Below are positions 1-20,144 of a DNA stretch of 36,683 nucleotides, in pieces; position 1 is the stretch's first letter, and each line of letters opens with the position of its first letter. The DNA comes from Candidatus Woesearchaeota archaeon (GTDB taxonomy: Archaea > Nanobdellota > Nanobdellia > Pacearchaeales > GW2011-AR1), in the NCBI GenBank assembly GCA_964652735.1, contig CAZZCD010000002.1, positions 1 through 36,683 of the forward strand, read 5' to 3'. A program made the position numbers and the translations under genes. A model generated the notes under the pieces. It saw nothing but the letters and a program-made list of their open reading frames with translations. It searched no databases and was not told the origin of the DNA.

Positions 1-3000
1 ATTTCAACGGTGCAATTAGTCCTGTTACATTGTTATCATCTAAATAATAATTGCTCCAATCAGCATGGTCAAACCTGCTTGCAGTCATTCTATATGAAAC
101 TTCTCCTGCCTGGGTTCCGTGGATTGTTAAGGTGTTTTTCTCAGGGTTTTTTTCATACCAGACATCTCCATTAAATCCAGGGGTTAATATTATCTGGAGT
201 TTTTCCCAGTTCTCTCCAAAGTCTGTTGTCTGGTAAAATAGCCATAAATCAGAGCCTTTCTCTAGTTTGTCAAATTCAATTGTATAGTTGCTTTTCAGCA
301 TGACACTTCCTGTAACTTCTTCTTTTATCCCAACCATACCAGCCATATATGTTGCATAGTTCGTACCATCAATAGTATAAACAGGGTCAACTGTGCCGAC
401 TGTGATTTTGCTTACTTCGGTGATGGCATTGTTGTTCATATCAAGACCAGCACTAGTAATACGAAATATTTCATCATTACCAGTACTAAATGCCAAGGTA
501 TCAGCTGCATTACCAGGTCTGTATATTCCCGTGTCTCCATCATTTGTAAAAGTATATGCTGGATCACCAGCAGTAGAACTTCCATCTCCAAGCCGTAGTT
601 CATTTGCTATCCTCATATATCCAGCAAAAATAGATTCTCCTGTCCCGCTCACTGTCAAGTCGCCATCTATCTGCAGGTTTCCAGTAGAACCCAGATTCAT
701 CTTCTCAACATTATTAATTAAAAAACCAATATCAACATCTGTATCAAACCTAAGCGCCCAAGCAGCGTCATCATCCAAGAAACCAAATTCTGTACCTGTA
801 GCATATACATAACCATCTGCAACACCATCAGAACCAGCTAACTTAAATCCTGAAGCCGACGACGCACCTTTTACAGTCATTGTATTATAATCCCCAATTA
901 AAGTAGGGGTGGTTATTTCAGGTGAGGTCCCAAATACCCATTTTCCACTTCCTGTTTCATCTGAAACTCGTGTTGCCCAATTAGCAGAAGTTGTTGCAGT
1001 TATCTCTGTGTAATCAATTGCTGTTCCAAGTGTTGCTGCAACTGTTACTTTGTCTGTTGCTGCTCCTGTTGTTGTTATTCCTGTTCCTGCTTCAATTGTT
1101 GCAGTATTTCCACTAGAAATTGTCTGAGGAGTTCCAGAGGTTCCTGCAAGAGTCCAAGAACCATAATTATCAGAAGCTGAATCTGCAGTACAAGTAATTG
1201 TCCCTGCTGCACTTACAGAACTAACTCCTGTATTTGCTCCACAACTGCTTACTTCTAACCAGGCAGCTCCTGCATCTGTAATAGATCCTCCATTAATATC
1301 TAAACTTCCTTCAGCATCTATGTCTCCATCTTCATCAACTTCAAACTTTTGTACTCCCCCAACAGCTAATCCTAATAATGCATAGTCAGCTGTTGCACTA
1401 GCAGGATTAATGTAAACCGGTGCTCCTGAAGCAACTGTAGAAGAAGATAAATCTGTACTTGAAAACTTACCTGTCATTGTTTCATCTTGAGCAAGTGCTA
1501 AATACTGTGGATGGTCATCATCACCCAGACCACCTAAATCATCGTGATCAAAGTCTATCTCTCCAATAGAAATAGCTGTTCCTAATGTTGCTGCAACTGT
1601 TACCTTGTCTGTTGCTGCCCCTGTTGTTGTTATTCCTGTTCCTGCTTCTATTAATGCTGTATTACCCTGTGTAATTGTTTGGCCACTTCCACTAGTTCCT
1701 GCTAATGTGAAACTGCTCATGGTTCCTGTTCCTGTATCTCCTGCACAGTTTATTGTTCCGTCTGATGAGATACTGCTCACATACTGGTCAGCACTGCAAC
1801 CGCCATTGAAGAAGTTTGCTGTATCGTCATAAAGATTCCCGCCTCCTATATCCCAGTTACCATTAGTATAAAGACCAGATCCTGATTGGGATATGTAGTA
1901 ACTAGTCTGGAATGCAGTTCCAGTTCCTGGATAAATAGCTCCTTTAAAGTCAGTGTCATTATCTGTATAGAAAGTTCTGAAATTCTCCTGAACCCGATTG
2001 TTCATACCATAATGAGTGTATCCATTACCAGTGTACCAAATGCTTCCTCTTGCACTGGCCGCTTCTCCAAACTCAATGCCTGCACTGCCTGCGTCATTGC
2101 TCTCAATAAGTATCGTAGGGTCAGCATCATTATCTCCAATTTGTAACAATTCTGTTGGACTCGTCGTCCCTATGCCGACGTTGCCATTAACATATAGGCT
2201 TGCAGTTGAACCTTGGAGATTTGATGACGTGCCAATACCAACCTTCTTGTCAAAAAGGAAATTGCCCCATCCATCCCAGTACATCTTTCCAACTTGTGTA
2301 TCATCAGAGCGACTCGCATTTATTATAACCCTTTCATTATCATCTTCCAAGTGAATGTTTACTTCTTGATTAGCATTACCTAACTGAATATTCCCTGCAA
2401 CATGTAATTTTTCATCAGGGCTTGTCTGCCCGATGCCGACGTTGCCTTTCATATAAATTTCACCTGCCCCTTTAACATACATCAAATCAGACCCATCTTT
2501 ATCTTCAACTATTAAAGTTGTTTCAGTATTGCTATCTCCTGCCCGTATTCTAACACCATTACCAGTAGTAGCGTGAGTATTATCAAAACGTGCTATATAG
2601 TCTGCATTAACCGAATCAACTACATATAACTTATAATTACCAGGATTAGTCGTCCCTATGCCGACGTTTCCTGTTCCTTTTATTATCATAGACTCTTGTT
2701 CCGCAGTGCTATTATAAGTTACAAAATGCATGTCAATTAATGTACCACCAGGAGCGCGGGTATAAATCTTAGCATTATAGCTACCTTGGTTAAATCTTAA
2801 TTCAGTAGTTTCACCTACATCCCATGTAGGATTATGAAGTTCTACAATAGGATTTGATGTATCATAAACCTCCAAATTCGCCCCAGGACTAGTCGTCCCG
2901 ATGCCGACGTTTCCACCTGTTTCTATAACCATTCTTGGATTTGTAGCTAAATCATCTCCGCTTGCAAATGTAAAAGTATTGCTATTTGAATTATCTCTTC

Positions 3001-6000
3001 CAATAGCCCATCCTGCTGCTTGTGTGTCTCTAAATCTTATATCTGAATCACCTGTTCCACCACCATCAATAACTAAAACTGCATTAGCTGCATTTAATAA
3101 TTGCATAGTTCCTTCTCTTACATCTAACTTAGTCGCTGGACTCGTCGTCCCGATGCCGACGTTGCTCGTAATATTATCTATAGCCAAAGCAACTGAACTT
3201 GTCCCATAATTGTAAATCAGTAAATCACCTGAACTTACTGGACGATAAAGTTCCCATTGATAATTTCCATCTTCCATAAAAAAAATGCCTGCTTCTTCAT
3301 TATCAGGTGCATCTAAAAAAAGAAATGCATCTTGAGTAGAACTATTTATTAGTATGCCATCAAGAGCTGTGCTTGTTTCAACAGTTAATTTCTTAGCAGG
3401 GTTAGTTGTTCCGATGCCGACGTTGCCTAAAAAGTAATTATCGTTAGCAGATTCAGTCTGTCTAAAAGTAGCTATATTTGTAAGAGCTCTAGTATTATCA
3501 ATAATAGTAGTCCCATCTATAATAAAACGACTATCTGAACCATTTAACAAAAGGTTTCCTGTTCCTCCTATTTCTAATTGTTTGCTTGGACTCGCCGTCC
3601 CAATGCCGACGTTGCCGTCATTTTGGAATGTTGTTAAAATTGTTGTCCCATACGCTATTTTTATATCATTGCTATCAGCAAATATAGAATATGCATTTGC
3701 TTGACCAGTGTCATCTATAACAAAAGCAGGATTTGCTGAACCTTCAATTTCTAAAAATGTAGATGAACCACCATCTTCTCTTGTTGGACTCGTCGTCCCA
3801 ATGCCAACCTTATCAGTATTACTATCAACAAACAAAACACTTGAATCAACACTAAAGTTATTTGCTCCTAAAACAACATTTTTGAAAGCACCTGTATATG
3901 GAACATAAGTGTCTGAGATGTTTGTATCTTCTGCTCCGTAAATTGTTCCTGTTACATTCAAATCTCCCACAACATTTAATGTGTTTTGTGGGGTTGCTGT
4001 GCCGATGCCGACGTTGCCAGTGGTATACAACTGGTCTGTATATGTATTCTTCCAATATCTAATACTACTACCTAAATCTAAACTACTGTCAGCACTAGGT
4101 TTAAGAACAGCATTAACTTGGACAACACTTGTGGCTGAACCCAAATATAAATCAGAAGCTTTTGTTGTTATCAATGAATATCCTGTTCCATCACCAGAAG
4201 TATCTGTAATTTTTATTCCCCTACTATTTACACTATTAACAACAATGTCCAACTTCGCCGAAGGACTAGTCGTCCCAATGCCAACCTTATCAGTATTACT
4301 ATCAACAAACAAAACACTTGAATCAACACTAAAGTTATTTGCTCCTAAATCAACATTTTTGAAAGCGCCTGTATAAGGCACAAAATCACCTGTAACATTC
4401 ACACCATTAATATATGTATTATGCGCTACAATATCATTTGCAATAAAGTTGTGTGTTCCCTCTATTGCTAAATCATAAACATGTTGTGGCTCGTGAGTTT
4501 TAATTGAAACAATCTTGTCAAAGAAAATATCAGCAGAAACATTTAAATATTTATTACCAGTATCTTTAGTTATGGTTGAAGTTACTATATCAATACCTGG
4601 AAAATTGAAAGAGAAAATGCAAAGAAGTGGCATAGGACTACATGTATTAGTTGAAAGACTAATAAAACAATTAGAAGAAGAGAAAGAAATGATAGATTGG
4701 TCAGTTAAATTGCAAAGAGCTTCTAGGAAAGGTAGGTTTGATGAACTGAAAAGAAGAGGATTAGTATAAATGAAATTTGTAGTTGATACAAATGTGTTAT
4801 TAACATTTTTTTGGGAGGATTCTTTTACTAAAGGAATATTACTTGACCAAGATTTTGAATTCTTTGCCCCAGAATATGCGTTAGAAGAAATCAATGGGCA
4901 TATATCTGAAATATTGCAAAAAACAAACACCTCATTAGAGCAATTCAAAGAACTAAGAAGAGATTTAGCTATCTGTGTTGAATTTATTCCATTAGAAAAA
5001 TATTCAGAATTTCTACAAAAAGTTTCAGATATTTCAGATAAAAAAGATGTTGATTTTATCGCATTAGCACTAAAACTCAAACTTCCTGTCTGGTCTAATG
5101 ACAAACATCTTAAGCAACAATCTTTAGTTAAAATATTCACAACAGAAGAATTAGTTAAATCCTTAGAATCCTCATAATTTCCTAACTTAGGAACAGCAAT
5201 CTCCTCACCTTCTTCTAATTCACTAACTTTAACCCAACCATCCTCTGTTAAATAAGGATGATTCCCAGTTGTGTTAACAGCTCTGCCACTCTCTGTAATC
5301 AACTCATAAATAGGCTTTTCACCCATATCTAATAAAGCTTTGACTTTGTTTGAAACAATCTCACCTGTTTCTTCATCTAAACTCAAAACATATTCACCAG
5401 CTTCAATATCTTTAATCTGCTTCTCTGAACCGTCTGCCATTGAAATCAGGCTGTCTTCTGCAACACACAATCCTGTTACGTTTAAGTCTCCATCAACATT
5501 CAAGGTGTTTTGTGGTGTTGTCGTCCCGATGCCGACGTTTCCACCTTCTAAGATTGTCATCTTCACATCATTACTTGTAGCAAAATATAATGGTTTGGCT
5601 TCTAACACATTAATCATACCATATTCTGCTGCATTATATCCGATATTCATACCATCTGAAATAAGAGCTCCTGTTTCATCTGTTGTAAATTTAATATATG
5701 CCTGACCTAAGCTGTGAATCTGAAGTGGGCGTGTTGGACTCGCCGTCCCGATGCCGACGTTGCCGTTAATCGCTAAAGCCGTACCCGCCGCCAAAGATTG
5801 ATCTGCCACATAGCCAATTACCTGGGCTCCTGATGATTGAACTGCCCAAGTATAAGATGACCCCGAACCAATATGTAACAATCCAAGAGGATTCGTCGTC
5901 CCGATGCCGACGTTGCCGTCTCCTCTTACGAGAAAATAGTTGCTTGAACCTGTTCGGTCTTGAATATAAAATGCTTTATCAGAAGAATTTGTCCCAGCTT

Positions 6001-9000
6001 TTATCCATGGTCCAAAACTCTGACCCGTTGTACTTCCTGCAGTAATTTCAGAAACATAATAATTATCCGCACCTGTCAATTCAAGCGCTCGTTGAGCGGC
6101 TCCTGCTAAGATTTCTACTTTATTACTTGGATTCGTAACTCCAATGCCGACGTTTCCTTCAACAATCAATCCATTAGCAGGAGGTTGTATATTATAATAA
6201 CCTCCTACCGAGAGACCAGAATTACTATGAAGTCCCATACCATACGCACCTTCATAAAATCTCATAAAATTAATGCCGGTAGTATTCACATTTTGTATAA
6301 ATGCTTGCACCCCTCCTGACGCTGAGTTTTCCAATCTTAAAGTAGGGTTATTATCCTTCAAATGAAGTAAGGAAGAAGGACTACTCGTCCCAATCCCAAC
6401 CATATTAGTATTTGAATCAACAAACAAAACACTTGAATCAACACTAAAGTTATTCGCTCCTAAATCAACATTGTAAAGAGCACCTGTATATGGAACATAA
6501 GTGTCTGAAAGATTTGCATCTCCTGCTCCGTATATTGTTCCGGTCACGTTTAAATCTCCAACAACATTCAAAGTGTTTTGTGGTGTTGTTGTGTTAATGC
6601 CGACGTTGCCGCTTCCTATAATAGCCAAAGCATCTCTGAAATCAGTACCATTAGATTGACTTAGATAAAGGTTACCATATATGTCATTACCTTTTGCTAT
6701 AATTTGAGTTGTCCCAAAGGCAGTATTAAATTGTCCCCAAGTATGATAATCATCTCCACCAGTATACCTATAAACCCGTATTCCATCAGTACTTCTATTT
6801 TCAGCACCACTAATTTTATTTAAGGTTAAATGAGCAGGAAGTGTTGAAGCGTCCCCGATGCCGACGTTTCCTCCTTGTTGTATTCTCATTGCCTCTGCAA
6901 CAGTACCACCTTGCTCTACTGCAAAAGCTAAATCACTATCGGTAGAACCTGTATCAATACCTGATATTCTGGCTATATTACCAGAACCTAAATTAAATAA
7001 AAGATTAGCAAATGAGTTAGTAGCACCATCTTCGTTTTGTATCATAATAGTTGCATCTGCTTCCTGACCACTAGAACTACTAGCATCATACGCTGTGGCA
7101 TCATCCTTCCTAACAACTAATAATGATGCTGGTGTTGTCGTCCCGATGCCGACGTTGCCACCTGTTTCAACCGTTACCAATTCCTGACTATTCATAGTAT
7201 TCACAGCCCCGTAAGCAATTTGGAATTTAGTATCATCATTCATACCTAATTTCCATGAATTAGCTTCTGCTGCTCCACCGCCAACTTCATAATAAATTTC
7301 ACCTGCTGCACTTTTTCCTCTAACTTCTATGGAAACATCTGCTGCATTTGTAAATGATGCTAATTGCTCATTATCTCCTGTAACTTCTAAAACATGCCCA
7401 GGTGTCGCCGTCCCGATGCCGACCCTATCAGTATTACTATCAACAAACAAAACACTTGAATCAACACTAAAATTATTTGCTCCTAAATCAACATTTTTTG
7501 TTGCACCTGTGTAAGGCACAAAATCCCCTGTAACATTCACACCATTAATATATGTATTATGAGCAACAATGTCATTTGCAATAAAGTTGTGTGTGTTTTC
7601 TATTGCAAGGTCATAAACATGCTGTGCTGGGTGTTGTTCTATTGAAGTTATTTTTTCCCATTTTATTATGTTTTGCCCATAATCAGGCACTGCTATTTCC
7701 ATTCCTTCTTCTAAATAAATTACTTTAAGCCACTCTACACCATCAGAAAGTTTTAAATATTCCTTGTTACTATTTTTATTTATGGCTGAATTAATAACTT
7801 CCCCTGAAACTGAATTAGATTTTAAATTAATGTCTAAAGCTGTAGTTCGATTAATGAAACAAGACATATCTGTAAGATTTAAACAAACAAGAGAAATAAC
7901 TGATGAAGATTGGGAATTTTGTGAGCAAATTAATTGGCATCCTGTTGATGAACTACCTATGAAAGAAGAATTTGTTAAAGAACTAAGAAAAAGAGAAAAA
8001 GGTCCGTTCATTAAATTTAATTCTGTGGATGAACTATTTAAAAAATGAGTTATACTCAAATTATTCATCCCAAATGTCAAAGAGAAATTAATAAGGTCTG
8101 TAGAAAAAATCCTATTCTTGAAAAAGTCCTTAGAAAAAAGATGGATGAAATCATCCAAAACCCCGGTCACTATAAATCTCTCAGACATGAGCTTGCTGGA
8201 GAAAGAAGAGTTCACATCCTCAAAAGTTTTATCCTCAAATTCAAAATTGATGAAGTCAACAAAATAGTTATGTTCCTCGCCTTCAGGCACCACGACAAAG
8301 CCTACTGATTTTTCCCCTAATTTTTCCTCAGAAGATAATTTAACCAAATAAGGATGATTTCCTGTTGTATTAATGCTTCTACCAGATTCTGTGGTTAACT
8401 CATAAATAGGCTTTTCACCCATATCTAATAATGCTAACACTTCATTAGAAACAATGTCTCCTGTTTCTTCATCTAAACTTAAAACACGCTCTCCCATTTG
8501 AACATCTTTAATCTCTTTTTTAGTTCCATCTGCCATTGAAATCAGAGAGTCTTCTGCAACACACAATCCTGTGACATTCAAATCTCCATCAACATTCAAT
8601 GTGTTTTGTGGTGTTGATGTGTTGATGCCGACGTTGCCGTCATTTTGAATCCTGACCCGTTCGTTCCCAGCCGCTTGACCTCCAGAATAAAATCGTATAT
8701 TACCAGAAGTATGACGTGCTATGATACTCAAACCCCCACTTAAATCTCCATCTGCTTCAATTGCTGCACCATCTTGCAGATATGCCCCAATAGGAGTATA
8801 TGCACTACCAAATGTAAAGAGATTCAACCAACCGCCATCGGCTTGAATTGAAGCTAGAGAACGTGAGTTGTTAGTTGGTTCTTTTACATAGAGGTCACCA
8901 TCATAAACTTCCAACTTCGCCGAAGGACTCGCCGTCCCAATTCCGACGTTACCACCTTCTAAAATAACCATATGCTCAGCTAATGTTCCAGTTCCTATAT

Positions 9001-9478
9001 TTTTCTTAAATATTAATCTTTCATTATCACTTTCAATGCCAACTATCCATTCATCTGTAGGAGACACTGAAGTTCCACCACTAGAAAGATACAAGTTTGA
9101 ATCTCCTCCACCTGCTTCGTGAATTTGAATAAGTCCTTGGACATCAAGTGCTTGATGTGGAGCAGTCGTCCCGATGCCGACGTTTCCTGAACTATCTAAA
9201 TTAATCCCTGTAGTTCCAGCATACTTAATATTCATTACATCATTACCTTGGTTATAATATAAATAACCTTTATTAGTGCCAGCATCTACTTGGAATCTTA
9301 TACCTACATCTGTATCTGCTGAATTAGCATCTGTATCTGAATTTATATCAATCCATGCTTCTCCTGTATCCGCTACATCTAACTTCTGTGAAGGACTCGT
9401 CGTCCCGATGCCGACATTACTGTTGTTATCAACATAAACATCTTCCTGATGCACGAAAGAATCGTGATATTCTGTTCT
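1..9478 (-). CDS. Giant repeat-rich secreted/surface fibre protein, 3'-partial (continues past the window start); hosts two inteins
   Basis: Plus-strand triplets in phase 2 mod 3 contain no TTA/CTA/TCA. I checked this by hand for 2-1650, 4430-5281, 5912-6154, 7742-8563 and 9380-9478. For the remainder it is implied by the absence of any in-phase minus-strand ORF call. An ORF with no stop inside the window is not listed, as shown by the unlisted partial pyrH at the right edge. The translation is Gly/Thr/Asn/Val-rich with 23 in-frame G-N-V-G-I-G-T-T-S-P modules and a DDHPQYL motif. Its repeat units match those in ORF 9479..12646. Confidence 0.8.
1020..1648 (-). repeat. Direct duplication of a 74-nt core (1020-1093 and 1575-1648) within a roughly 555-nt module repeat
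   Basis: The two copies differ at 4 positions. Both encode ...EAGTGITTTGAATDKVTVAATLGTA... Confidence 0.8.
4542..4549 (+). promoter_or_regulatory. TATA box of the intein-2 VapBC operon
   Basis: TTTAAATA (context TTTAAATATT) lies 30 nt upstream of ATG 4572. Confidence 0.5.
4572..4769 (+). CDS. VapB-like antitoxin (65 aa) embedded antisense in intein 2
   Basis: The ORF track calls a TTG start at 4515, which would lie inside the intein C-lobe. ATG 4572 is 30 nt downstream of TTTAAATA. The N-terminus MVEVTISIPGKLKEKM is typical of a small RHH/AbrB-type antitoxin. Its TAA stop is immediately followed by the vapC ATG. Confidence 0.6.
   Translation: MVEVTISIPGKLKEKMQRSGIGLHVLVERLIKQLEEEKEMIDWSVKLQRASRKGRFDELKRRGLV
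4770..5177 (+). CDS. vapC: PIN-domain toxin VapC (135 aa) embedded antisense in intein 2
   Basis: The N-terminus is MKFVVDTNVLL (first acidic residue). It continues ...APEYALEEI..., ...DVDFIALALKL... and ...VWSNDKHL, giving the PIN acidic-residue pattern. Size and position directly after a small antitoxin ORF also fit. Confidence 0.8.
   Translation: MKFVVDTNVLLTFFWEDSFTKGILLDQDFEFFAPEYALEEINGHISEILQKTNTSLEQFKELRRDLAICVEFIPLEKYSEFLQKVSDISDKKDVDFIALALKLKLPVWSNDKHLKQQSLVKIFTTEELVKSLESS
7752..7759 (+). promoter_or_regulatory. TATA box of the intein-1 TA operon
   Basis: TTTAAATA (context TTTAAATATT) lies 30 nt upstream of ATG 7782. The VapBC cassette has the identical box and spacing. Confidence 0.5.
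7782..8048 (+). CDS. Putative antitoxin (88 aa) of the intein-embedded RelE-type module
   Basis: The ORF track calls a TTG start at 7764. I prefer ATG 7782, which lies exactly 30 nt downstream of TTTAAATA. Its stop overlaps the toxin start (ATGA at 8045-8048). It is small and acidic, and its C-terminus (...REKGPFIKFNSVDELFKK) resembles that of the antitoxin at 13866 (...YEKGRFVELK). Confidence 0.6.
   Translation: MAELITSPETELDFKLMSKAVVRLMKQDISVRFKQTREITDEDWEFCEQINWHPVDELPMKEEFVKELRKREKGPFIKFNSVDELFKK
8045..8308 (+). CDS. RelE/ParE-family toxin (87 aa) embedded antisense in intein 1
   Basis: The pattern ...NPGHYKSLRHELAGERRVHILKSFILKFKIDEVNKIVMFLAFRHHDKAY matches the RelE/ParE layout (NP..x..L...L.G..R..i...f.l.y.i.......v....HH..aY). 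Its size is as expected and it has a 4-nt overlap with the upstream antitoxin. Confidence 0.75.
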   Translation: MSYTQIIHPKCQREINKVCRKNPILEKVLRKKMDEIIQNPGHYKSLRHELAGERRVHILKSFILKFKIDEVNKIVMFLAFRHHDKAY

Positions 9479-12400
9479 CTATAGATATTGTGCTTTTACT
9501 TCATCTGCTGATAATGCCCGGTTGTAAATGCGAACATCATCTAAACTCCCATTTAAATAATTACCCCCCCTATTCCCAATTGATGTAAGAGTAAAAGATG
9601 AAAAATCAGTAGATGTACCGCTAACATCATTTTCACCATTTAAATATATAATTGTTTGATTGTTTGTCTCATCATAGGTTAATGTTATAAATACCCACTC
9701 ATTTAAATTCCAAGGATTACTATTTAAATAATCACCTTCGTCTGCTAGTGCCCAATGTATATGATTATATAAATAAACATCCAAACCATCATTGGTAGAT
9801 GTAAATATTCCTGTCCAATATGCTTTAGTATATTGATAAAGCCATAATTCAGCACTAAATGACCCTGATATTGTTCTTCCTACACTAATATAATCATCTC
9901 CATCAAATTCAAAATCACCACCATTATTGAATCCACCTGATGAATTTGCTGTTGCTCCGTGATTTGTTCCGTGTTGATTGTAAATAGAACTATCTAAAAC
10001 AGTTTCGCTTCCTGCTGAACCTACAAGGTTTTCAGAATTAAAATTCATCGCTAAAATTAATCCTTCATCTGAAATCTCATGAATGCTTTTTGTATTTGTA
10101 AAACCATTAACATCTAATGTATAATTGGGACTAGTCGTCCCGATGCCGACGTTGCCTCCTGATTCAATTCTAAGAAGTTCTCCACCATTATATTGAAATA
10201 TATAATTACCTCCACTTATCCAATAACGGTCTAAAACAAAATCACCATTAGCATCATAAAACTCAATCGTCCCATAATGAGTTGCATCACTGCCCCCACC
10301 TATTTTTTTACTATTAGGTATGCTTAATTGATAAAGAGGACTCGTCTCCCCGATGCCAACGTTACCGCCTGCTTCTATTCTCATCTTTTCAGACCAACCA
10401 CTCTGTCCATAAGCACTATAAGTCCCAAACACTAAATCAGCAGGGGCATCAGAATCTCCAAAAGCAATATATGAATCAGTAGCATCTGCTGTTAAGATTA
10501 TAAAATTATCATTTGTATCCTCTTTTATCCCAAATGTAGCACTGGCTTTAGTTATATCTAAAGTTTTGGTTGGACTAGTCGTCCCAATCCCAACCATATC
10601 AGTATTTGAATCAACAAACAAAGTATCTGTGTCTACAGTCAGATTCTTCTTCAGCTCTGTGTTTCCGTAAACAATAAAATCATTAACTACACTCATGTTC
10701 TGCTTTGTCAGATTCATAGAAGTTATATTATAAACATAAATTGTCTGTGCATAAATACTGCCTGCGTCAATTGTAACACCTCCAGAAGCCCAGTCTCCAT
10801 CTACATCCAAGCTTCCTGCAATATCAAAATCCCCTACTACAGAAGTGTTCAAAGGCATGAAGAAAGTTGAGTCATAGCCATCCAGGGTCTCAGAACCCTG
10901 AGCAGATATATTAATGCATGTCAAAGTATCTCCAATTATTTGAACAGCATGTCCAGCAGGACAGGCAGAAGGATAATTTGTAAGATTTGCCCATCCGAGC
11001 AAACTTGTTCCATAATTCAAAGCAACTGTTTCTGTATAACCTTCTCCAGGTGTTCCTGAAACACTTATTCCACTTCCAGAAGCAACATCTCCGACATAAT
11101 TTCCAGTTGTATCTGTTCCAAGAACAACAGAATCTGGCTGCACAGCTGTAACTCCTGTGCTTGAAATATTAATATCTCCAGAAACAGCTTTTGTTTCCCA
11201 GGCAGTTCCAGAACCAATCAAAATATTTCCAGAAGTTGCAGTGGTTGTTCCAAGAGATGAGCCATTTATCTTAACAACATCTGGATTTGGATAAGTTCCA
11301 GATAAATCACCACCTGCAGTCTGTCCTTCTTTAATATAATTATTATCAAAATAAGTAGTATTTACATTTATAGTAGTTGTTCCGCCCAAAGCCACAGAAC
11401 CTCCTCCTATCAAACCAGTGCCTGCAGTAATAGTTAAAGTTGAATTAGCCAAGTCTACATTTCCAACAGCTCCGTCAGTTATCATAGCACTAGTTATTGA
11501 GTCCACTTGGTCTTCATTCACATACCTAATATCTCCTGTCTGGTTAAGCTTAGTCTCATTAAGAATAAAATAATTACTTGCATTCTTATAGATATAAATC
11601 CCTCCTGCATAATATAAGGTATCTGTATTAATATCTTCAGAACACTCCCAAGCAGAAGAAGTAGCATTCCACTTAGCAATCTCTGTATCTGCACAGCTCA
11701 ATCCTGCAAGAGTGTCATTCTCTCTAAGATCAATAGTCTGATTAAGCTGGCTTTCTGAAAAACTTAAAGTTGAACCGTCAAATGTCAGATAATCGCTGTC
11801 TTCTGTCCAATTAAATCTTCCTTTGAACCAGTCTGCTGTCACATTTCCTGTAACATTAACATCACCACCAACCCTGATATCTCCTGTAACATTTATATCT
11901 CCAGAAACATTAACATCTTGAACAAATAAACTTGTTATTCTATTTATCAAGCTTCCTAAAAAGCTGAAAAATCCTGAACTAGCACTTACATTATAACTTC
12001 CTAAAGTAAGATTAGAATCCACACTAACCTCACTCAAATTAACATCTGTTGCCCTAAATGCATAAGGAACTCTTCCAAGCTGAGATACATTCTTCAAAGT
12101 TCCATCTCTGTAATAACATAAGTAATACTGGGTGTCATAATCTAGTAAACTGAGATTCCCTCCTCCTGAGCCAACTGTTGGAAGATAAAGTGAAACAATT
12201 CCTCGTGTATCTGTAGTTTGTGAGGTAGAATGGTTATAAACAACATCAGGACCACAAAGTGTACTTGAATTATCTGTAATATTAAATCCAAAAGTAAACG
12301 TTCCTGTTTCAATTGTTCCATTAGAAAATGTTGTCTGAAGATTTATATGAAAAGTGTCATTGATTGGAGCAGCAGAAACCATGCTTAAAAAGAATATCAA

Positions 12401-12646
12401 ACTTGAAGCCAAAAATAAATTTATTAATAATTTCTTAGAACTTGTAAATTTTGGATTTTGTTTTTTAACAGTTTTTTTATTTTTCTGTTTAGATGGATAT
12501 TTTTTAAACTCTATCTTTTTCTTACTAACTGAAATATACCATACACTACTTGACATACAATTATTAATCAAAGACCAATCATAAAAATTAGGAACCATTT
12601 CAGGTCTAAAACAGGGTATTTTGGGCCTTTTGTATGTTTTTTCCAT
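9479..12646 (-). CDS. N-terminal part of the giant surface protein (signal anchor, fibre repeats, LamG-like jelly-roll domain); ends at a TAG in the same phase as the downstream 9.5 kb frame
   Basis: ORF track gives 1055 aa. An ATATAAAA box lies 29 nt upstream of ATG 12646. There is a hydrophobic anchor LLINLFLASSLIFFLSMVSAAP and more than 30 N-x-S/T sequons by eye. Three NVGIGT(T/E)SP-type modules are present. The C-terminal ...GSLDDVRIYNRALSADEV is typical of LamG/concanavalin-like domains. Confidence 0.85.
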   Translation of the reverse strand: MEKTYKRPKIPCFRPEMVPNFYDWSLINNCMSSSVWYISVSKKKIEFKKYPSKQKNKKTVKKQNPKFTSSKKLLINLFLASSLIFFLSMVSAAPINDTFHINLQTTFSNGTIETGTFTFGFNITDNSSTLCGPDVVYNHSTSQTTDTRGIVSLYLPTVGSGGGNLSLLDYDTQYYLCYYRDGTLKNVSQLGRVPYAFRATDVNLSEVSVDSNLTLGSYNVSASSGFFSFLGSLINRITSLFVQDVNVSGDINVTGDIRVGGDVNVTGNVTADWFKGRFNWTEDSDYLTFDGSTLSFSESQLNQTIDLRENDTLAGLSCADTEIAKWNATSSAWECSEDINTDTLYYAGGIYIYKNASNYFILNETKLNQTGDIRYVNEDQVDSITSAMITDGAVGNVDLANSTLTITAGTGLIGGGSVALGGTTTINVNTTYFDNNYIKEGQTAGGDLSGTYPNPDVVKINGSSLGTTTATSGNILIGSGTAWETKAVSGDINISSTGVTAVQPDSVVLGTDTTGNYVGDVASGSGISVSGTPGEGYTETVALNYGTSLLGWANLTNYPSACPAGHAVQIIGDTLTCINISAQGSETLDGYDSTFFMPLNTSVVGDFDIAGSLDVDGDWASGGVTIDAGSIYAQTIYVYNITSMNLTKQNMSVVNDFIVYGNTELKKNLTVDTDTLFVDSNTDMVGIGTTSPTKTLDITKASATFGIKEDTNDNFIILTADATDSYIAFGDSDAPADLVFGTYSAYGQSGWSEKMRIEAGGNVGIGETSPLYQLSIPNSKKIGGGSDATHYGTIEFYDANGDFVLDRYWISGGNYIFQYNGGELLRIESGGNVGIGTTSPNYTLDVNGFTNTKSIHEISDEGLILAMNFNSENLVGSAGSETVLDSSIYNQHGTNHGATANSSGGFNNGGDFEFDGDDYISVGRTISGSFSAELWLYQYTKAYWTGIFTSTNDGLDVYLYNHIHWALADEGDYLNSNPWNLNEWVFITLTYDETNNQTIIYLNGENDVSGTSTDFSSFTLTSIGNRGGNYLNGSLDDVRIYNRALSADEVKAQYL

Positions 12647-12980: not shown

Positions 12981-13205
12981 TTATAATAATTCCAGAAATT
13001 CTTCTTTGCTTAATTTTACTTGTTTTAATATCTCTCTCAAAAGTCCTTTGCCTAATTTTTCATTTCCATGAATTGGAATGATAGTCCTTCTTCCATCAAG
13101 ATGTTTGAGTCTAACATGGCTACCTTTTCCTTTAATCATTTCAAAACCTTTTTTCTCTAAAATCTTACATAATTCTTTGCCAGAAATACGCACTAACTTA
13201 GCCAT
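12981..13205 (-). CDS. hicA: HicA mRNA-interferase toxin
   Basis: ...SGKELCKILEKKGFEMIKGKGSHVRLKH.DGRRTIIPIHGNE.LGKGLLREILKQ matches the HicA/YcfA signature. It lies immediately downstream of hicB. Confidence 0.85.
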   Translation of the reverse strand: MAKLVRISGKELCKILEKKGFEMIKGKGSHVRLKHLDGRRTIIPIHGNEKLGKGLLREILKQVKLSKEEFLELL

Positions 13206-13208
13206 TTT

Positions 13209-13451
13209 TTAATTAGAAACCATAAATGGCTTTTTTACCTGTACTTTTTGAATCCCTATAAATTTCATTGGTTCTATGTCTTCCCCATCAGCTTCTAAAC
13301 ATAATTCAATGGCTTCTTTAATTCTTTCCACTACTTCAGAAATTGTTTTTCCTTGTGTATGACAGCCTTGAATATCTGGAACAGTAGCTACGTAAATTCC
13401 ACCTTCATCTTGTTCAATCAATACTGTAAAATCTAATATCTTTTTTTCCAT
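13209..13451 (-). CDS. hicB: HicB antitoxin (UPF0150 fold)
   Basis: FTVLIEQDEGGIYVATVPDIQGCHTQGKTISEVVERIKEAIELCLE is the HicB N-domain pattern. I prefer ATG 13451 over the track's TTG 13457. Confidence 0.8.
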   Translation of the reverse strand: MEKKILDFTVLIEQDEGGIYVATVPDIQGCHTQGKTISEVVERIKEAIELCLEADGEDIEPMKFIGIQKVQVKKPFMVSN

Positions 13452-13539
13452 AACCAATAACTGTAATAGAATTATTTAAACCTTTCTTCATGAGGTTCTA
13501 AGACAAATTTTAAATACAGAAAAAACATGAAAGGATTGC

Positions 13540-13660
13540 GAGCCTGTAGCTCAGTCTGGTTAGAGCACTGCTCTTATATGAATCTAATTCGCAAGGATTA
13601 GTTTCTCTTGGAAGATTCTAAGAGAGGCAGGGGTCCTCGGTTCAAATCCGAGCAGGCTCA
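13540..13660 (+). tRNA. tRNA-Ile(UAU)-like with a 46-nt intron (13579-13624) at the canonical 37/38 position
   Basis: I folded it by hand. Acceptor is GAGCCUG/CAGGCUC, D stem GCUC/GAGC and anticodon stem CUGCU/GGCAG. The loop is C-U-UAU-A then the intron. T arm is CUCGG-UUCAAAU-CCGAG and the discriminator is A. TTTAAATA lies at 13509-13516, 31 nt upstream. Confidence 0.75.
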
Positions 13661-13741
13661 TAAAACTTTTAAAAAGTTTTAGATCAAACCTAGATACTTA
13701 TCAGTTATCTTTAAAAACTAATTTTGATAATTCTTTATAAT

Positions 13742-13814
13742 GCCCCGATAGTTCAGAGGCCAAGAATGCAAGGTTTTCAACCTTGTGACCCGGGTTCGAA
13801 TCCCGGTCGGGGCG
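13742..13814 (+). tRNA. tRNA-Glu(UUC)
   Basis: Acceptor is GCCCCGA/UCGGGGC, D stem GUUC/GAAU and anticodon stem CAAGG/CCUUG with loop UU-UUC-AA. T arm is CCGGG-UUCGAAU-CCCGG. Confidence 0.9.
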
Positions 13815-13839
13815 TTATAACCCTAATTTAAAAGAAAGA

Positions 13840-13865: not shown

Positions 13866-14105
13866 ATGTATATGGAAACAACCATCAGGCTTAATATTGA
13901 TATAAAAAAAAGGTTGGATTCAATGAAAATTCATTCTAGAGAAAGTTATAATGATGTTGTTGCTAGAATTATAGGAGACAATAAGAAAATTGATGAAGAA
14001 AGTTTAAAAGAAACTATAGAAGTTCTCAGTGACCCCAAAACAATGAGAGACATTGCAGAAGCTCTTGAAGATTATGAAAAGGGGAGATTTGTAGAGCTTA
14101 AATGA
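13866..14105 (+). CDS. RHH-type antitoxin (RelB/ParD-like)
   Basis: The N-terminus TIRLNIDIKKRLDSMK looks like an RHH strand. It has an acidic C-terminus and an ATGA overlap with the toxin at 14102. Confidence 0.7.
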   Translation: MYMETTIRLNIDIKKRLDSMKIHSRESYNDVVARIIGDNKKIDEESLKETIEVLSDPKTMRDIAEALEDYEKGRFVELK

Positions 14106-14359
14106 GCTATAAAATATTTCTTTCTCCAAAGGCAAACGATTTCTTAGAAAAACTTGATAAAAAAGATAAAGAAAGGATGAAGAACAAATTAAAAGATTTA
14201 AGAGAAAGTCCAGAATTAGGAAAACCCCTTATAGGAAAGCTTGCTGGTTTGTGGAGTTTAAGAGCAGGGGATTATCGTGCTTTATATCAAATAAGAGATA
14301 GTGAACTCTTAATTCTTGTTTTAAAAATTGATCATAGAAAAAAGATATATAAAAAATAG
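14102..14359 (+). CDS. relE: RelE/ParE-family toxin
   Basis: ...LRESPELGKPLIGKLAGLWSLRAGDYRALYQIRDSELLILVLKIDHRKKIYK is the canonical RelE pattern. Confidence 0.85.
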   Translation: MSYKIFLSPKANDFLEKLDKKDKERMKNKLKDLRESPELGKPLIGKLAGLWSLRAGDYRALYQIRDSELLILVLKIDHRKKIYKK

Positions 14360-18182: not shown

Positions 18183-18725
18183 TCAAAAAAACTTATCTAA
18201 AACAGATTTACTTAATTGTTTGAAAGCATCACATTCGTGCTTTAAATGATAAGAAAACTTTATTTCAAATCCTATGTTCTCAACGTTTTTTCCAATTTCT
18301 TGAACAGCTTTTATAGCAGGGACAAAATCTCCATCTGTAGAAACTAATATTGCAGTATCATAGGCATTGTTATAAGCTAATTTTACCATATCAACAGCAA
18401 GATGAATGTCATCTTCTTTAACCTGATAATCTATTTTTCCATCAATCTTAACTTTTTGCATTCTACATAAAATAAGCTTAAAATTTGGAATCTTTTTCAA
18501 TTTTTCAAAGAATTTTTGCTGTTTCCTATAGGTTATTCCATCTTTTTTCCTATCTAAAGGTGCAGTATAATAATAAACCCTTATCTTTTTCCTTCCTGAA
18601 ACAAGATGCCTAGAAAATCTATCAAAATCAAATTTCATAAAAGTTTTAGATGCTCCATATATTTCTTTAAGAATATGGTAAAAATTACTTCCATCAATAA
18701 AAATAATTATTCTATCAGTCATCAC
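18183..18725 (-). CDS. NYN/LabA-like (PIN-related) domain protein
   Basis: The motifs are IIIFIDGSNFYH... and ...AILVSTDGDFVPAIKAVQEIGKNVENIGF. Confidence 0.8.
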   Translation of the reverse strand: MMTDRIIIFIDGSNFYHILKEIYGASKTFMKFDFDRFSRHLVSGRKKIRVYYYTAPLDRKKDGITYRKQQKFFEKLKKIPNFKLILCRMQKVKIDGKIDYQVKEDDIHLAVDMVKLAYNNAYDTAILVSTDGDFVPAIKAVQEIGKNVENIGFEIKFSYHLKHECDAFKQLSKSVLDKFF

Positions 18726-19016: not shown

Positions 19017-20144
19017 ATGAAATTTAACATTCTGCAATATTTACCTAACACAACAAAAATAATGATAGATAAAGAAATAAGAAAAGAATTATTTTCTAAT
19101 AAATCTATAAGTGAATGGAGTAAATCTCTTAATGTTCCTTTAAAAAACATAAGCAGATATATCAATGGGACAAGATCCATTCCGATAACATTATTAACTG
19201 AATTGGCCAAATCAAAGAAGATAAACAGTAAATTACAAGATAAAATAAAACTTAAAATAACTAAAAGCGGGAATTATCTCAGAATTGGCCCAATAATTAA
19301 AATAGATGAAGACTTGATATATGTAGCAGAATTGATTAAAGGGGATGGACATATCACCCCCAATTTCTGGAGGATAATCTTTGTGAATAATAATGGATTT
19401 TTAATAACTTATGTTCATAATTTTTTCAAGTCTTTAGGAATAAAACAAAGCCAGATAAGCCTTATTAAAAGAAAAGATGCTAATTTTCTTACTATAAGAT
19501 CATCCTTATTAGCCATATTATTCAATAAAATTTTGGAGGTTCCATCAGGAAGAAAAAAAGAATTAAATATTCCTGAATTCGTACTTTCAGACAGAAATTT
19601 AAGTATCGCGGCGGTTAGGGGAGCATTTGATGCTGAAGGACATATAACTTCAAAAGGTTCTAGAAGGATTTCTATAACATCAAATAGTAAAAAATGGTTA
19701 ACCCAATTAAAACAAATCTTAGAGAAGTTAAATATAAATTCAAGAATATTTGAAGACAAATCAAAAAGAAAAGAGCCACTCTACAGGCTCTTTATATCCC
19801 ATAGACAAAATCTCATAAAATTTCTAAAAATAATCAAACCTTTACACACGAAAAGAAAAGAAAAATTAAAAGAAAGATTATCTGATTATACAAAAAATCC
19901 TCAAAAAGAATTTCATAAGAGAATATTGCTCTCAATAAAAAAGGGAAATACCAGAAGAAGAGAAATTGCTAGCGATATAAAACAGGATTTAATATTAATT
20001 GGGAACAATATTAATTGGTTAAAGAAAAAAAGGTATATAGATTCTTTCGAAAAGATTTATACAAACAAAGGATGTTACCATAAATACAAAGTTACTGGAA
20101 AAGGGGAAGGATATCTAGAAAAATCACTTTCTTTCTTCGATTGA
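19017..20144 (+). CDS. Free-standing double-motif LAGLIDADG homing-endonuclease-like protein with N-terminal HTH
   Basis: Two dodecapeptide motifs are present: YVAELIKGDGHI and IAAVRGAFDAEGHI. The N-terminal SISEWSKSLNVPLKNISRYINGTRSIP looks like an HTH. The 3' end overlaps the thrS 3' end convergently by 21 nt. Confidence 0.8.
   Translation: MKFNILQYLPNTTKIMIDKEIRKELFSNKSISEWSKSLNVPLKNISRYINGTRSIPITLLTELAKSKKINSKLQDKIKLKITKSGNYLRIGPIIKIDEDLIYVAELIKGDGHITPNFWRIIFVNNNGFLITYVHNFFKSLGIKQSQISLIKRKDANFLTIRSSLLAILFNKILEVPSGRKKELNIPEFVLSDRNLSIAAVRGAFDAEGHITSKGSRRISITSNSKKWLTQLKQILEKLNINSRIFEDKSKRKEPLYRLFISHRQNLIKFLKIIKPLHTKRKEKLKERLSDYTKNPQKEFHKRILLSIKKGNTRRREIASDIKQDLILIGNNINWLKKKRYIDSFEKIYTNKGCYHKYKVTGKGEGYLEKSLSFFD

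Follow-up and report, generated by a model that had tools for sequence, protein, structure and literature searches.

The surface-protein gene at the left end of contig CAZZCD010000002.1 (assembly GCA_964652735.1, Candidatus Woesearchaeota archaeon), of which we analysed positions 1 to 36,683 of the forward strand (36,683 nucleotides, hereafter the window), raises the question of how a single open reading frame (ORF) can accommodate two inteins, neither of them with a homing endonuclease, that each carry a complete toxin–antitoxin (TA) operon on the opposite strand. A first-pass annotation of the sequence had described two such inteins, each with an antisense promoter, antitoxin and toxin, and all of these elements are indeed there. 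The intein frame runs without a stop through both TA cassettes, the cassettes occupy two different positions of the same Hint fold, and the arrangement recurs in other genomes. We consider it likely that inteins of this kind are nested selfish elements, in which a TA operon has replaced the homing endonuclease as the device that ensures persistence.

Two inteins in equivalent repeat modules

Both inteins open with the block A sequence CVAEDSLIS (TIGR01445, E 1e-8 and 5e-8), and the TxxH motif of block B is present in both as TTGNHPYL, which is invariant across alignment A1 of related inteins. Blocks F/G read VYDLAIE.THNFIANDIVAHN-T in both, that is, with a penultimate His, a terminal Asn and a Thr at position +1, and the intein C-terminal model TIGR01443 is matched with E 7e-7 and 5e-7. 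The same site is interrupted in two repeat modules (NVTGL-intein-TYINGVNVTGDF, or in a longer reading NVTGL-intein-TYINGVNVTGDFVPYTGA), while uninterrupted modules read NVTG-TIYGAGDANLSDT (longer reading NVTG-TIYGAGDANLSDTYVPYTGA). When occupied and empty modules are aligned, the predicted spliced module has the same length as an uninterrupted one. The full set of C1, TxxH, HN and Thr+1, together with the restored module length, identifies these elements as inteins and not as bacterial intein-like (BIL) domains; weak matches to the Pfam PT-HINT family were also recorded. On these grounds both inteins are probably splicing-competent. A Pfam scan of either intein frame revealed no LAGLIDADG, HNH or other endonuclease family. 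A split intein or 'fractured gene' was considered and ruled out, there being no stop past the N-lobe and no start ahead of the C-lobe.

The antisense toxin–antitoxin cassettes

The two cassettes (Table 1) encode members of different TA families, as had been proposed on the basis of a RelE fold in one toxin and a PIN domain in the other: direct comparison, toxin with toxin and antitoxin with antitoxin, disclosed no similarity between them. The PIN_2 toxin retains D6, E40 and D93, which are invariant in alignment A2, where the fourth acidic position is either D or E. The toxin of cassette 1 matches the YafQ model TIGR00053 with E 2e-15 and 57.1 bits, below the cut-off of 87.25, and thus appears to be related to YafQ without being a member by the NCBI threshold. 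Its antitoxin is 60% identical to the partner of RelE in a related locus (L001; L and P numbers denote loci and proteins of the relatives) and is homologous to the antitoxin upstream of a stand-alone RelE in L089 and L092. The antitoxin of cassette 2 shares 57% identity with the antitoxin paired with PIN in L003, and its match to the VapB model NF050799 is weak (E 0.015, far under the cut-off). The pair of antitoxin and PIN_2 toxin is retained in L003, L004, L005 and L031, and that of antitoxin and RelE also in L001, L031, L089 and L092. Full-length homologues of the TA genes are found at other loci with 57-66% identity. Two further weak matches of the cassette 1 antitoxin are to DUF2683 (E 0.011) and to positions 353-437 of NF003157, an 864-position model of the replication factor C (RFC) small subunit (E 0.0012). 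The latter positions may belong to an intein, in which case a similar sequence would be hinted at in a classical archaeal RFC intein.

With starts annotated at 4515 and 7764, the two antitoxin ORFs had been made too long; their ATG codons are located at 4572 and 7782. Seen from these codons, a module AGAAAnnTTTAAATA-N22-ATG stands ahead of eight embedded cassettes belonging to three TA families, and in both cassettes of the window the TATA box is preceded by AGAAA. The distance of 22 nt between TATA box and ATG is consistent with the spacing expected for leaderless archaeal mRNA. No clear terminator follows the PIN gene, so that transcripts could enter the N-lobe. A scan of the region for sigma-70 promoters and terminators gave no enrichment over shuffled sequences; the model is unsuited to an archaeon. 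The cassettes of L031 have a Shine–Dalgarno-like GGTGA ahead of the ATG in place of a TATA box.

Table 1. Positions of the host gene, the inteins and the embedded cassettes in the window
Feature	Position	Strand	Remarks
Host gene	2..9478	-	GNVGIGTTSP-repeat surface protein; open frame leaves the window at its left end
Intein 1	7556..8563	-	336 aa; class-1 termini C1 ... HN, T+1; Pfam Intein_splicing E 5e-22
Intein 1 N-lobe, blocks A-B, aa 1-74	8342..8563	-	ends in HPYLV
Intein 1 insert in intein frame, aa 75-272	7748..8341	-	insertion site I; S/N/L-rich antisense read-through peptide
Intein 1 strand SDGVEWLKVIYLEEGMEIAVPD (N4-type), closed short loop and blocks F/G	7556..7747	-	
Cassette 1 TATA box TTTAAATA	7752..7759	+	AGAAAGT (similar to the transcription factor B recognition element, BRE) just before; 22 nt ahead of ATG
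Cassette 1 antitoxin, 88 aa	7782..8048	+	stop overlaps toxin start (ATGA, 8045-8048)
Cassette 1 RelE/YafQ-like toxin, 87 aa	8045..8308	+	PF05016 ParE_toxin, 27.1 bits (cut-off 23)
Cassette 1 spacer, toxin stop to block B	8309..8341	+	two T5 runs; possible archaeal terminator
Intein 2	4418..5467	-	350 aa; class-1 termini; Pfam Intein_splicing E 1.5e-27
Intein 2 N-lobe and strand EDGWVKVSELEEGEEIAVPKLGN, aa 1-97	5177..5467	-	
Intein 2 insert in intein frame, aa 98-311	4535..5176	-	canonical endonuclease site (site II)
Intein 2 C-lobe (ADIFFDKIVSIK...AHN), 39 aa	4418..4534	-	
Cassette 2 TATA box TTTAAATA	4542..4549	+	AGAAACA just before; 22 nt ahead of ATG
Cassette 2 VapB-like antitoxin, 65 aa	4572..4769	+	toxin ATG directly next
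Cassette 2 PIN_2 toxin, 135 aa	4770..5177	+	PF10130 E 3.9e-19, 69.7 bits (cut-off 22.4); stop abuts Hint strand
Empty homologous intein site, third repeat module (NVTG-TIYGAGD)	6538..6539	-	from module alignment
Empty homologous intein site, fourth repeat module (NVTG-TIYGAED)	3946..3947	-	from module alignment

Dual coding without stops

Across each cassette the intein frame contains no stop, as against 19-29 in the other two opposite-strand frames; the two stand-alone TA pairs of the window have at least three stops in every opposite-strand frame. Since the cassettes are antisense, the codons that end their own genes specify Leu or Ser on the intein side, which makes the antisense orientation the only way to house independent genes without ending the host frame. 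The significance of the open frame was assessed by synonymous-codon resampling, in which the protein sequences were fixed and codons were drawn from the window's own usage. The probability of finding no stop was 0.0054 for RelE, 0.014 for PIN and 0.15 for the VapB-like gene; it was 1.0 for the cassette 1 antitoxin, whose amino-acid sequence permits no stop in that frame. In three of the four TA genes the wobble positions coincide with those of the overlapping intein frame, RelE lying codon on codon, and the same phases are repeated in L001.

The best control for stop avoidance is the comparison of embedded with stand-alone RelE genes. Five stand-alone relatives (60-68% identity) contain 3-9 TTA, CTA or TCA codons per 85-87 codons, and their longest open antisense run does not exceed 39 codons, whereas the embedded copies in the window and L001 contain no such codon. 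Probabilities derived from background stop density (about 2-4e-4 per cassette) are too optimistic for PIN_2, where the value was 4e-4, because the whole family is stop-depleted, and the case for stop avoidance therefore relies on the resampling and the RelE comparison and not on this background null. Between the window and embedded relatives, third codon positions of the TA frame account for most substitutions: in PIN there are 54, as compared with 37 and 21 at the other two positions, and in RelE 31, as compared with 24 and 16. Identity in the TA frame, 59-64%, equals or exceeds that in the intein frame over the same bases. The insert peptide has no family match in a Pfam scan and no predicted structure in the AlphaFold 2 (AF2) model of intein 1. 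Judging from these comparisons, the TA genes are real and under protein-level selection, and the openness of the intein frame is more than chance.

Two insertion points in the Hint fold

Without their inserts, the two inteins can be aligned over the whole length of the Npu DnaB mini-intein 4O1R (E 7e-26 for intein 2 and 4e-18 for intein 1), with no internal gaps at the junctions. Cassette 2 falls at ALPRNSG-SDIYW of 4O1R, the position of its deleted endonuclease domain, and cassette 1 at HKFLT-INGW, some 24 residues before it, in the stretch that links block B to the following strand. The first-pass annotation had placed the former at the usual endonuclease site and the latter right after block B, and the alignments bear out both placements: the inserts map to different loops. 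The position of cassette 1 is unexpected, because Beyer et al. 2019 (PMC6801210) place every intein endonuclease domain at one conserved site and discuss reasons for excluding other positions.

An AF2 model was made for full-length intein 1, the Hint fold of intein 2 being judged by sequence alignment to 4O1R. The predicted local distance difference test score (pLDDT) exceeds 90 for residues 1-80 and 272-336, whereas the insert (residues 82-271) scores below 50 and is placed between strands 71-75 and 276-280. The best Foldseek match of the model is again 4O1R, with a template modelling score of 0.90 on the target and a root mean square deviation of 1.5 A. The model thus suggests that the Hint fold closes around the insert at site I. 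If 'KLSSEEKLGEKSVGFVVVPEGEE', which follows block B in intein 1, were a degenerate first copy of the strand, both cassettes would occupy one and the same site. This was ruled out, as these residues are the antisense of the RelE C-terminus from residue 86, and also because it is the downstream strand that builds the fold in the AF2 model. In P0026, P0031, P0038, P0041 and P0078, 40-110 extra residues are present at yet another insertion point ('site 0', the third), some 11 residues past the intein start (CVAEDSLISVV-...-IKDIK.GDYVLSL; alignment A1, columns 16-70).

Recurrence in related inteins

A search with both inteins retrieved 117 proteins. Their named sources are mostly Nanoarchaeota/Woesearchaeota and Patescibacteria, and many of the hosts are LamG, 'tail fibre' or Gly-rich repeat proteins. 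With the host-frame translations of the cassettes as signatures, antisense TA cassettes were counted in 38 of the 117 (25 PIN_2, 17 DUF433/DUF5615 and 6 RelE), so that the wider class of intein-borne TA modules suspected from the window alone exists and comprises three families. A motif-based parse of the inteins assigned inserts to site I only in 36 cases, to site II only in 15 and to both in 4-7, and one protein, the mini-intein P0031, has neither. No member of the surface-protein clade contains a LAGLIDADG domain, which was found only in distant matches such as DnaB, RecA and terminase. The surface-protein host, which had been regarded as unusual for inteins, is instead the rule for this clade in DPANN archaea and Patescibacteria (GNVGIGT-repeat, LamG and 'tail fibre' proteins); the accompanying statement that the termini are fully canonical stands.

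Inspection of the DNA of selected relatives revealed intact antisense operons. That of L003, with VapB-like antitoxin and PIN_2, is at site I. The L001 locus contains antitoxin and RelE in a second, divergent Hint type (CYDNETEILT...WSGN-S), L006 contains DUF433 with DUF5615, and a single intein in L004 carries DUF433 with DUF5615 at site I and antitoxin with PIN_2 at site II. Two PIN_2 cassettes and a duplicated strand were found in L005. The type-2 Hint domain receives sub-threshold Pfam scores only. Species-representative genomes furnished 80 PIN_2 loci. In 29 of these no stop interrupts the antisense frame over the whole cassette, 9 lie inside antisense ORFs longer than 1.7 kb, and Hint lobes of either type flank at least 6. 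Some inteins hold several cassettes: there are three in a window-type intein of about 1070 aa (L054) and at least three in L031, where the open frame of 3.4 kb closes with a type-2 C-lobe, and L026 contains repeated units of N-lobe and cassette, with a copy of the Hint N-lobe ahead of each cassette. More generally, arrays of two to at least three cassettes, in which PIN_2 and RelE types alternate, occupy one open antisense frame of 1.7 to >3.4 kb in L031 (1234-3285), L026, L049, L055 and L083.

An exhaustive HMMER search of 1.84 billion cluster representatives with the read-through peptide of cassette 2 yielded 58 proteins at E<=1e-3, 17 of them at 1e-10, and some of the 58 are 1000-2800 aa long. 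A word-indexed search with the antisense insert peptide returned two proteins and missed known relatives, and is unfit for judging the size of the class. The arrangement of antisense TA genes in inteins is rare but recurrent.

Several related observations concern the cargo and its surroundings. PIN_2 cassettes also lie in open antisense frames of 330-450 codons, comprising the cassette and 100-300 nt on each side, with no recognisable Hint lobe (L024, L030, L037, L040, L043, L047, L069, L074, L084 and L086). Such loci come from Methanophagales, Thermoplasmatota, Halobacteria and DPANN, and may be relics of embedding or represent another host context. In Patescibacteria the same loops can hold sense-coded NYN domains, which are not TA cargo. 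At site I of L007 (2590-2850) and L008 (630-900), both from Patescibacteria, the antisense strand has about 250 nt free of any ORF. Within this stretch, a tRNA-like element, whose acceptor and T arms differ between the two loci by compensatory changes, is followed by TTGACA-N17-TAnnnT, about 45 nt and an intrinsic terminator. Neither ARAGORN nor Rfam at gathering thresholds identified a tRNA gene in these two loci, and sub-threshold matches to tmRNA and mascRNA were obtained (E 4e-5 and 4e-4). Archaeal inteins contain tRNA-like sequences in the sense strand and in frame, often beside a cassette border (L003 273-356, L054 and, as host-frame peptides, P0009, P0020, P0029, P0038, P0041 and P0050). 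That of L003 is called tRNA-Ile(aat) by ARAGORN, and a peptide GVAQSGTAADS...LRVRN.GLE.KSEVPSSS recurs. These sequences are possibly remnants of attachment sites. The hosts of same-clade inteins in P0049 and P0089 (Patescibacteria) begin with phage-integrase SAM-like N-terminal domains (PF13495, PF02899).

Capture or exchange of cassettes

The first-pass annotation had taken the two inteins for close paralogues and the two cassettes for the outcome of recurrent capture or exchange. As to the former, blocks F/G are nearly identical (23/24), and the N-lobes share 60 of 74 residues, that is, 14 differences where 13 in 73 had been counted. Inteins from other genomes are about as similar in the N-lobe, however (59/73 for P0001 and 58/74 for P0027). 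The two N-lobes of the window thus resemble each other no more than they resemble their counterparts elsewhere, and the two architectures must therefore be old lineages and not the result of a recent event within this genome.

The notion of recurrent capture or exchange agrees with the distribution of cargo. PIN_2 cassettes are found at site II in the window, P0020, P0025 and P0038 and at site I in P0001, P0003, P0017 and P0018. Scaffolds of the intein 1 type carry RelE (window), PIN_2 (P0001, P0003) or DUF433/DUF5615 (P0019, P0026, P0027), and RelE cassettes follow block B in two unrelated Hint types; L004, as noted above, uses both sites at once. The repeat units of L026 are exactly what unequal recombination of inteins with different cargo would give. 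Repeated independent insertion and recombinational exchange of cassettes both fit these data, which do not separate capture from exchange.

Host gene and genomic setting

The minus-strand frame of the host gene is open from 9478 to 2, a total of 3159 codons, and continues past the edge of the window. Upstream and in the same frame, an ORF of 1055 aa (9479-12646) encodes a signal/transmembrane region and LamG. A single in-frame TAG (9479-9481, minus strand) separates the two; relatives read through this junction as '...HYL-RG...' without a stop. Recoding of TAG is unlikely, because TAG serves as an ordinary stop that closes 6 of the 30 genes of the window, and the in-frame TAG may reflect a pseudogene, a polymorphism or an error. 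The window has the archaeal traits of TATA-type promoters and an intron-containing tRNA, and the named relatives of its threonyl-tRNA synthetase are from Pacearchaeota (70% identity) and Nanoarchaeota (69%), which would make the source a Pacearchaeota/Nanoarchaeota-like archaeon. GC content is 0.29-0.31 within the cassettes as compared with 0.36-0.44 across the host gene. GC skew is positive in the interval 4501-5000, centred on cassette 2 (+0.27), whereas over cassette 1 it climbs no higher than zero.

The surface-protein gene has two stand-alone TA pairs immediately upstream, HicA/HicB (12981-13457) and a VapB-type antitoxin with ParE (13866-14359), and between them an intron-containing tRNA (13540-13660) and tRNA-Glu (13741-13815). 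A stand-alone NYN-domain protein is encoded at 18183-18725 (minus strand); NYN is also the sense-coded cargo of the related Patescibacteria inteins P0012, P0044, P0057, P0069 and P0077. A free-standing LAGLIDADG_3 protein of 375 aa is encoded at 19017-20144 (plus strand).

Discussion

The persistence of these inteins may be understood as follows. Two canonical inteins devoid of a homing endonuclease interrupt two of four equivalent modules of the surface-protein gene, and each holds a TA operon with coupled or directly adjacent genes and a BRE/TATA promoter of its own just inside one border of the cassette. The codons of the cassette are chosen so that the intein frame gains no stop, and a ribosome translating the host mRNA would read through some 200 codons of meaningless, unstructured peptide. 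This peptide would loop out of the Hint fold and leave with the intein by protein splicing, whereby a module of normal length would be restored. The intein would thus offer the TA operon a phenotypically cost-free site, while imprecise deletion would destroy the host protein. As the gene also has two vacant target sites, the allele would otherwise be lost easily, gene conversion from an empty module being one route; the TA operon would penalise loss of the intein-bearing allele through post-segregational release of the toxin. Addiction would then take the place of homing in the persistence of the intein. Cassettes may have been swapped among inteins and between the two permissive Hint loops, the simplest route being recombination by way of the Hint lobes, which are conserved.

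In its most general form, which we put forward only tentatively, this reasoning would define 'addictive inteins', found in DPANN archaea and with modifications in Patescibacteria, as composite mobile elements of a new class. Such inteins, located in surface-protein genes and having no endonuclease, would be carriers and exchange platforms for stop-free antisense TA operons, single or in arrays. By post-segregational killing the TA operons would maintain both the intein and its hypervariable host gene, the Hint lobes would act as portable homology arms for the shuffling of cassettes, and the fold would have at least one further natural site for large insertions.

Several observations weigh against the proposal that TA operons have replaced the endonuclease in such inteins. 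Splicing, transcription from the TATA boxes, TA activity, the benefit of addiction and the mechanism of exchange are all things we infer. In the Pfam and NCBIfam scans neither antitoxin scored above any curated family threshold, and the N-terminal part of the cassette 1 antitoxin is unlike that of its stand-alone relatives, which have WVNWSEIAREE. The alignment supplied to AF2 held relatives of the same architecture, which favours the modelled topology. Among the 80 PIN_2 relatives, 33 have no stop in the relevant antisense frame across the PIN gene (mean 1.9), and about 20 of the 29 cassettes with an open frame have no recognisable Hint lobe nearby. Finally, the break at the in-frame TAG may mean that the host is a recent pseudogene or two genes. 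This last point leads to the idea that the host gene or the inteins are dead, that the cassettes sit in a pseudogene and that the open frame is a leftover or due to chance. Relatives such as L004 do have frame breaks at the intein ends, and PIN_2 genes tend to be free of antisense stops anyway; yet 3159 codons have stayed open, every catalytic motif is kept in both inteins, stop-free embedding is repeated at dozens of independent loci, and TTA, CTA and TCA codons are absent from the embedded RelE copies only. Decay of this sort is therefore highly improbable. Even less credence, indeed hardly any, can be given to the view that the insert is a real domain of the sense strand and that the plus-strand TA ORFs are artefacts. 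The insert peptide is 50-57% identical among relatives, a conservation that follows from the wobble position it shares with the TA frame, and the substitutions follow the TA frame. Moreover, it is the plus-strand ORFs that match PIN_2 and ParE/RelE, whereas the insert has neither a family match nor a predicted structure.

Two other explanations accept the TA genes and dispute what they do for the intein. For TA cassettes an intein might be no more than a neutral landing pad, or the cassettes might help the cell under stress or in abortive infection, without any benefit to the persistence of the intein. The stand-alone HicAB and VapB-type/ParE pairs beside the gene in the same genome would fit this, as would the occurrence of PIN_2 cassettes outside inteins and the use of the same loops by sense-coded NYN cargo in Patescibacteria. 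We nevertheless find it rather unlikely, since all antisense cargo identified in archaeal surface-protein inteins is TA, from three families and never with an endonuclease, which fits a replacement of function. Alternatively, the internal promoters could mainly interfere with, or phase-vary, expression of the surface protein, TA coding being secondary. Strong consensus promoters do face the host gene, and the transcripts that could reach the N-lobe past the PIN gene point the same way. But regulation needs neither two intact genes nor three TA families, the TA frames have the substitution pattern of protein-coding sequence, and full-length homologues keep the catalytic residues; a mainly regulatory role is thus very unlikely, about as much so as decay or marginally less. 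The replacement of the homing endonuclease by an addictive operon consequently remains the reading that we prefer.

Parallels can be drawn with other nested elements. In group I and group II introns with nested or antisense endonuclease ORFs, self-splicing makes the insertion of the second selfish gene harmless. Here, by contrast, splicing takes place at the protein level, so that the antisense strand of the cargo has to be translatable as well. In chromosomal integrons, TA cassettes are credited with stabilising the array, and may be compared with the arrays of at least three cassettes in L031. Neither an integrase nor attC sites were noticed in the archaeal loci. As in type II TA systems (VapBC with PIN_2, RelBE/YafQ and DUF433-DUF5615), the embedded genes are small, follow the order antitoxin–toxin, overlap or adjoin one another and belong to the same domain families; unlike these systems, they are antisense within coding sequence, are synonymously recoded, and share one promoter module across families. 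BIL and pretoxin-HINT domains likewise reside in hypervariable secreted or surface repeat proteins, but the inteins of the window differ from BIL domains in their canonical termini and in the restored module length.

The closest comparison is with the large inteins that contain LAGLIDADG or HNH endonucleases. In these, too, the Hint domain is split by looped-out selfish cargo, and cassette 2 lies at the exact endonuclease site. In the present case, however, the cargo is on the opposite strand, forms a two-gene operon with a promoter of its own that is not fused to the Hint domain, and encodes TA proteins in place of a homing nuclease, while cassette 1 and most relatives use the loop that joins block B to the strand after it. 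An intein of cyanobacterial dnaX has a gene for a homing endonuclease that is out of frame, which its authors call a rarity and ascribe to secondary invasion of a mini-intein. It resembles our case in that the reading frame of the intein is overlapped by a gene with a translation of its own. We take that gene to be on the same strand, since the paper never mentions antisense, reverse or opposite strand; the inteins described here differ in being invaded in antisense, by two TA genes and sometimes by several cassettes. In a literature search limited to open-access papers and bioRxiv we found no description of TA modules inside inteins, and the word 'intein' is absent from the DPANN genomics papers among the 20 top-ranked matches. 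In strand, type of cargo, insertion site and dual coding, the arrangement is a large and unexpected departure from inteins with nested selfish cargo.

The embedded TA genes have gone unannotated because gene callers report only the long frame, and their read-through peptides enter protein databases as 'hypothetical' sequence. The natural antisense overlaps, which extend from 0.6 to >3.4 kb and are kept by synonymous-site selection, show how far overlapping genes can be tolerated. Published work confines large insertions in inteins to a single conserved site (PMC6801210). The loop between block B and the following strand is a second site for large insertions in the Hint fold, and the commoner one in this clade, which may be useful for the engineering of split or domain-inserted inteins. 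For chromosomal TA modules, the inteins provide a concrete genomic niche and a plausible vehicle of mobility. Lastly, the persistence of inteins that have no endonuclease becomes a testable matter, in a clade that has putative addiction modules in place of endonucleases and in which empty target sites lie only a few kilobases away in the same ORF.

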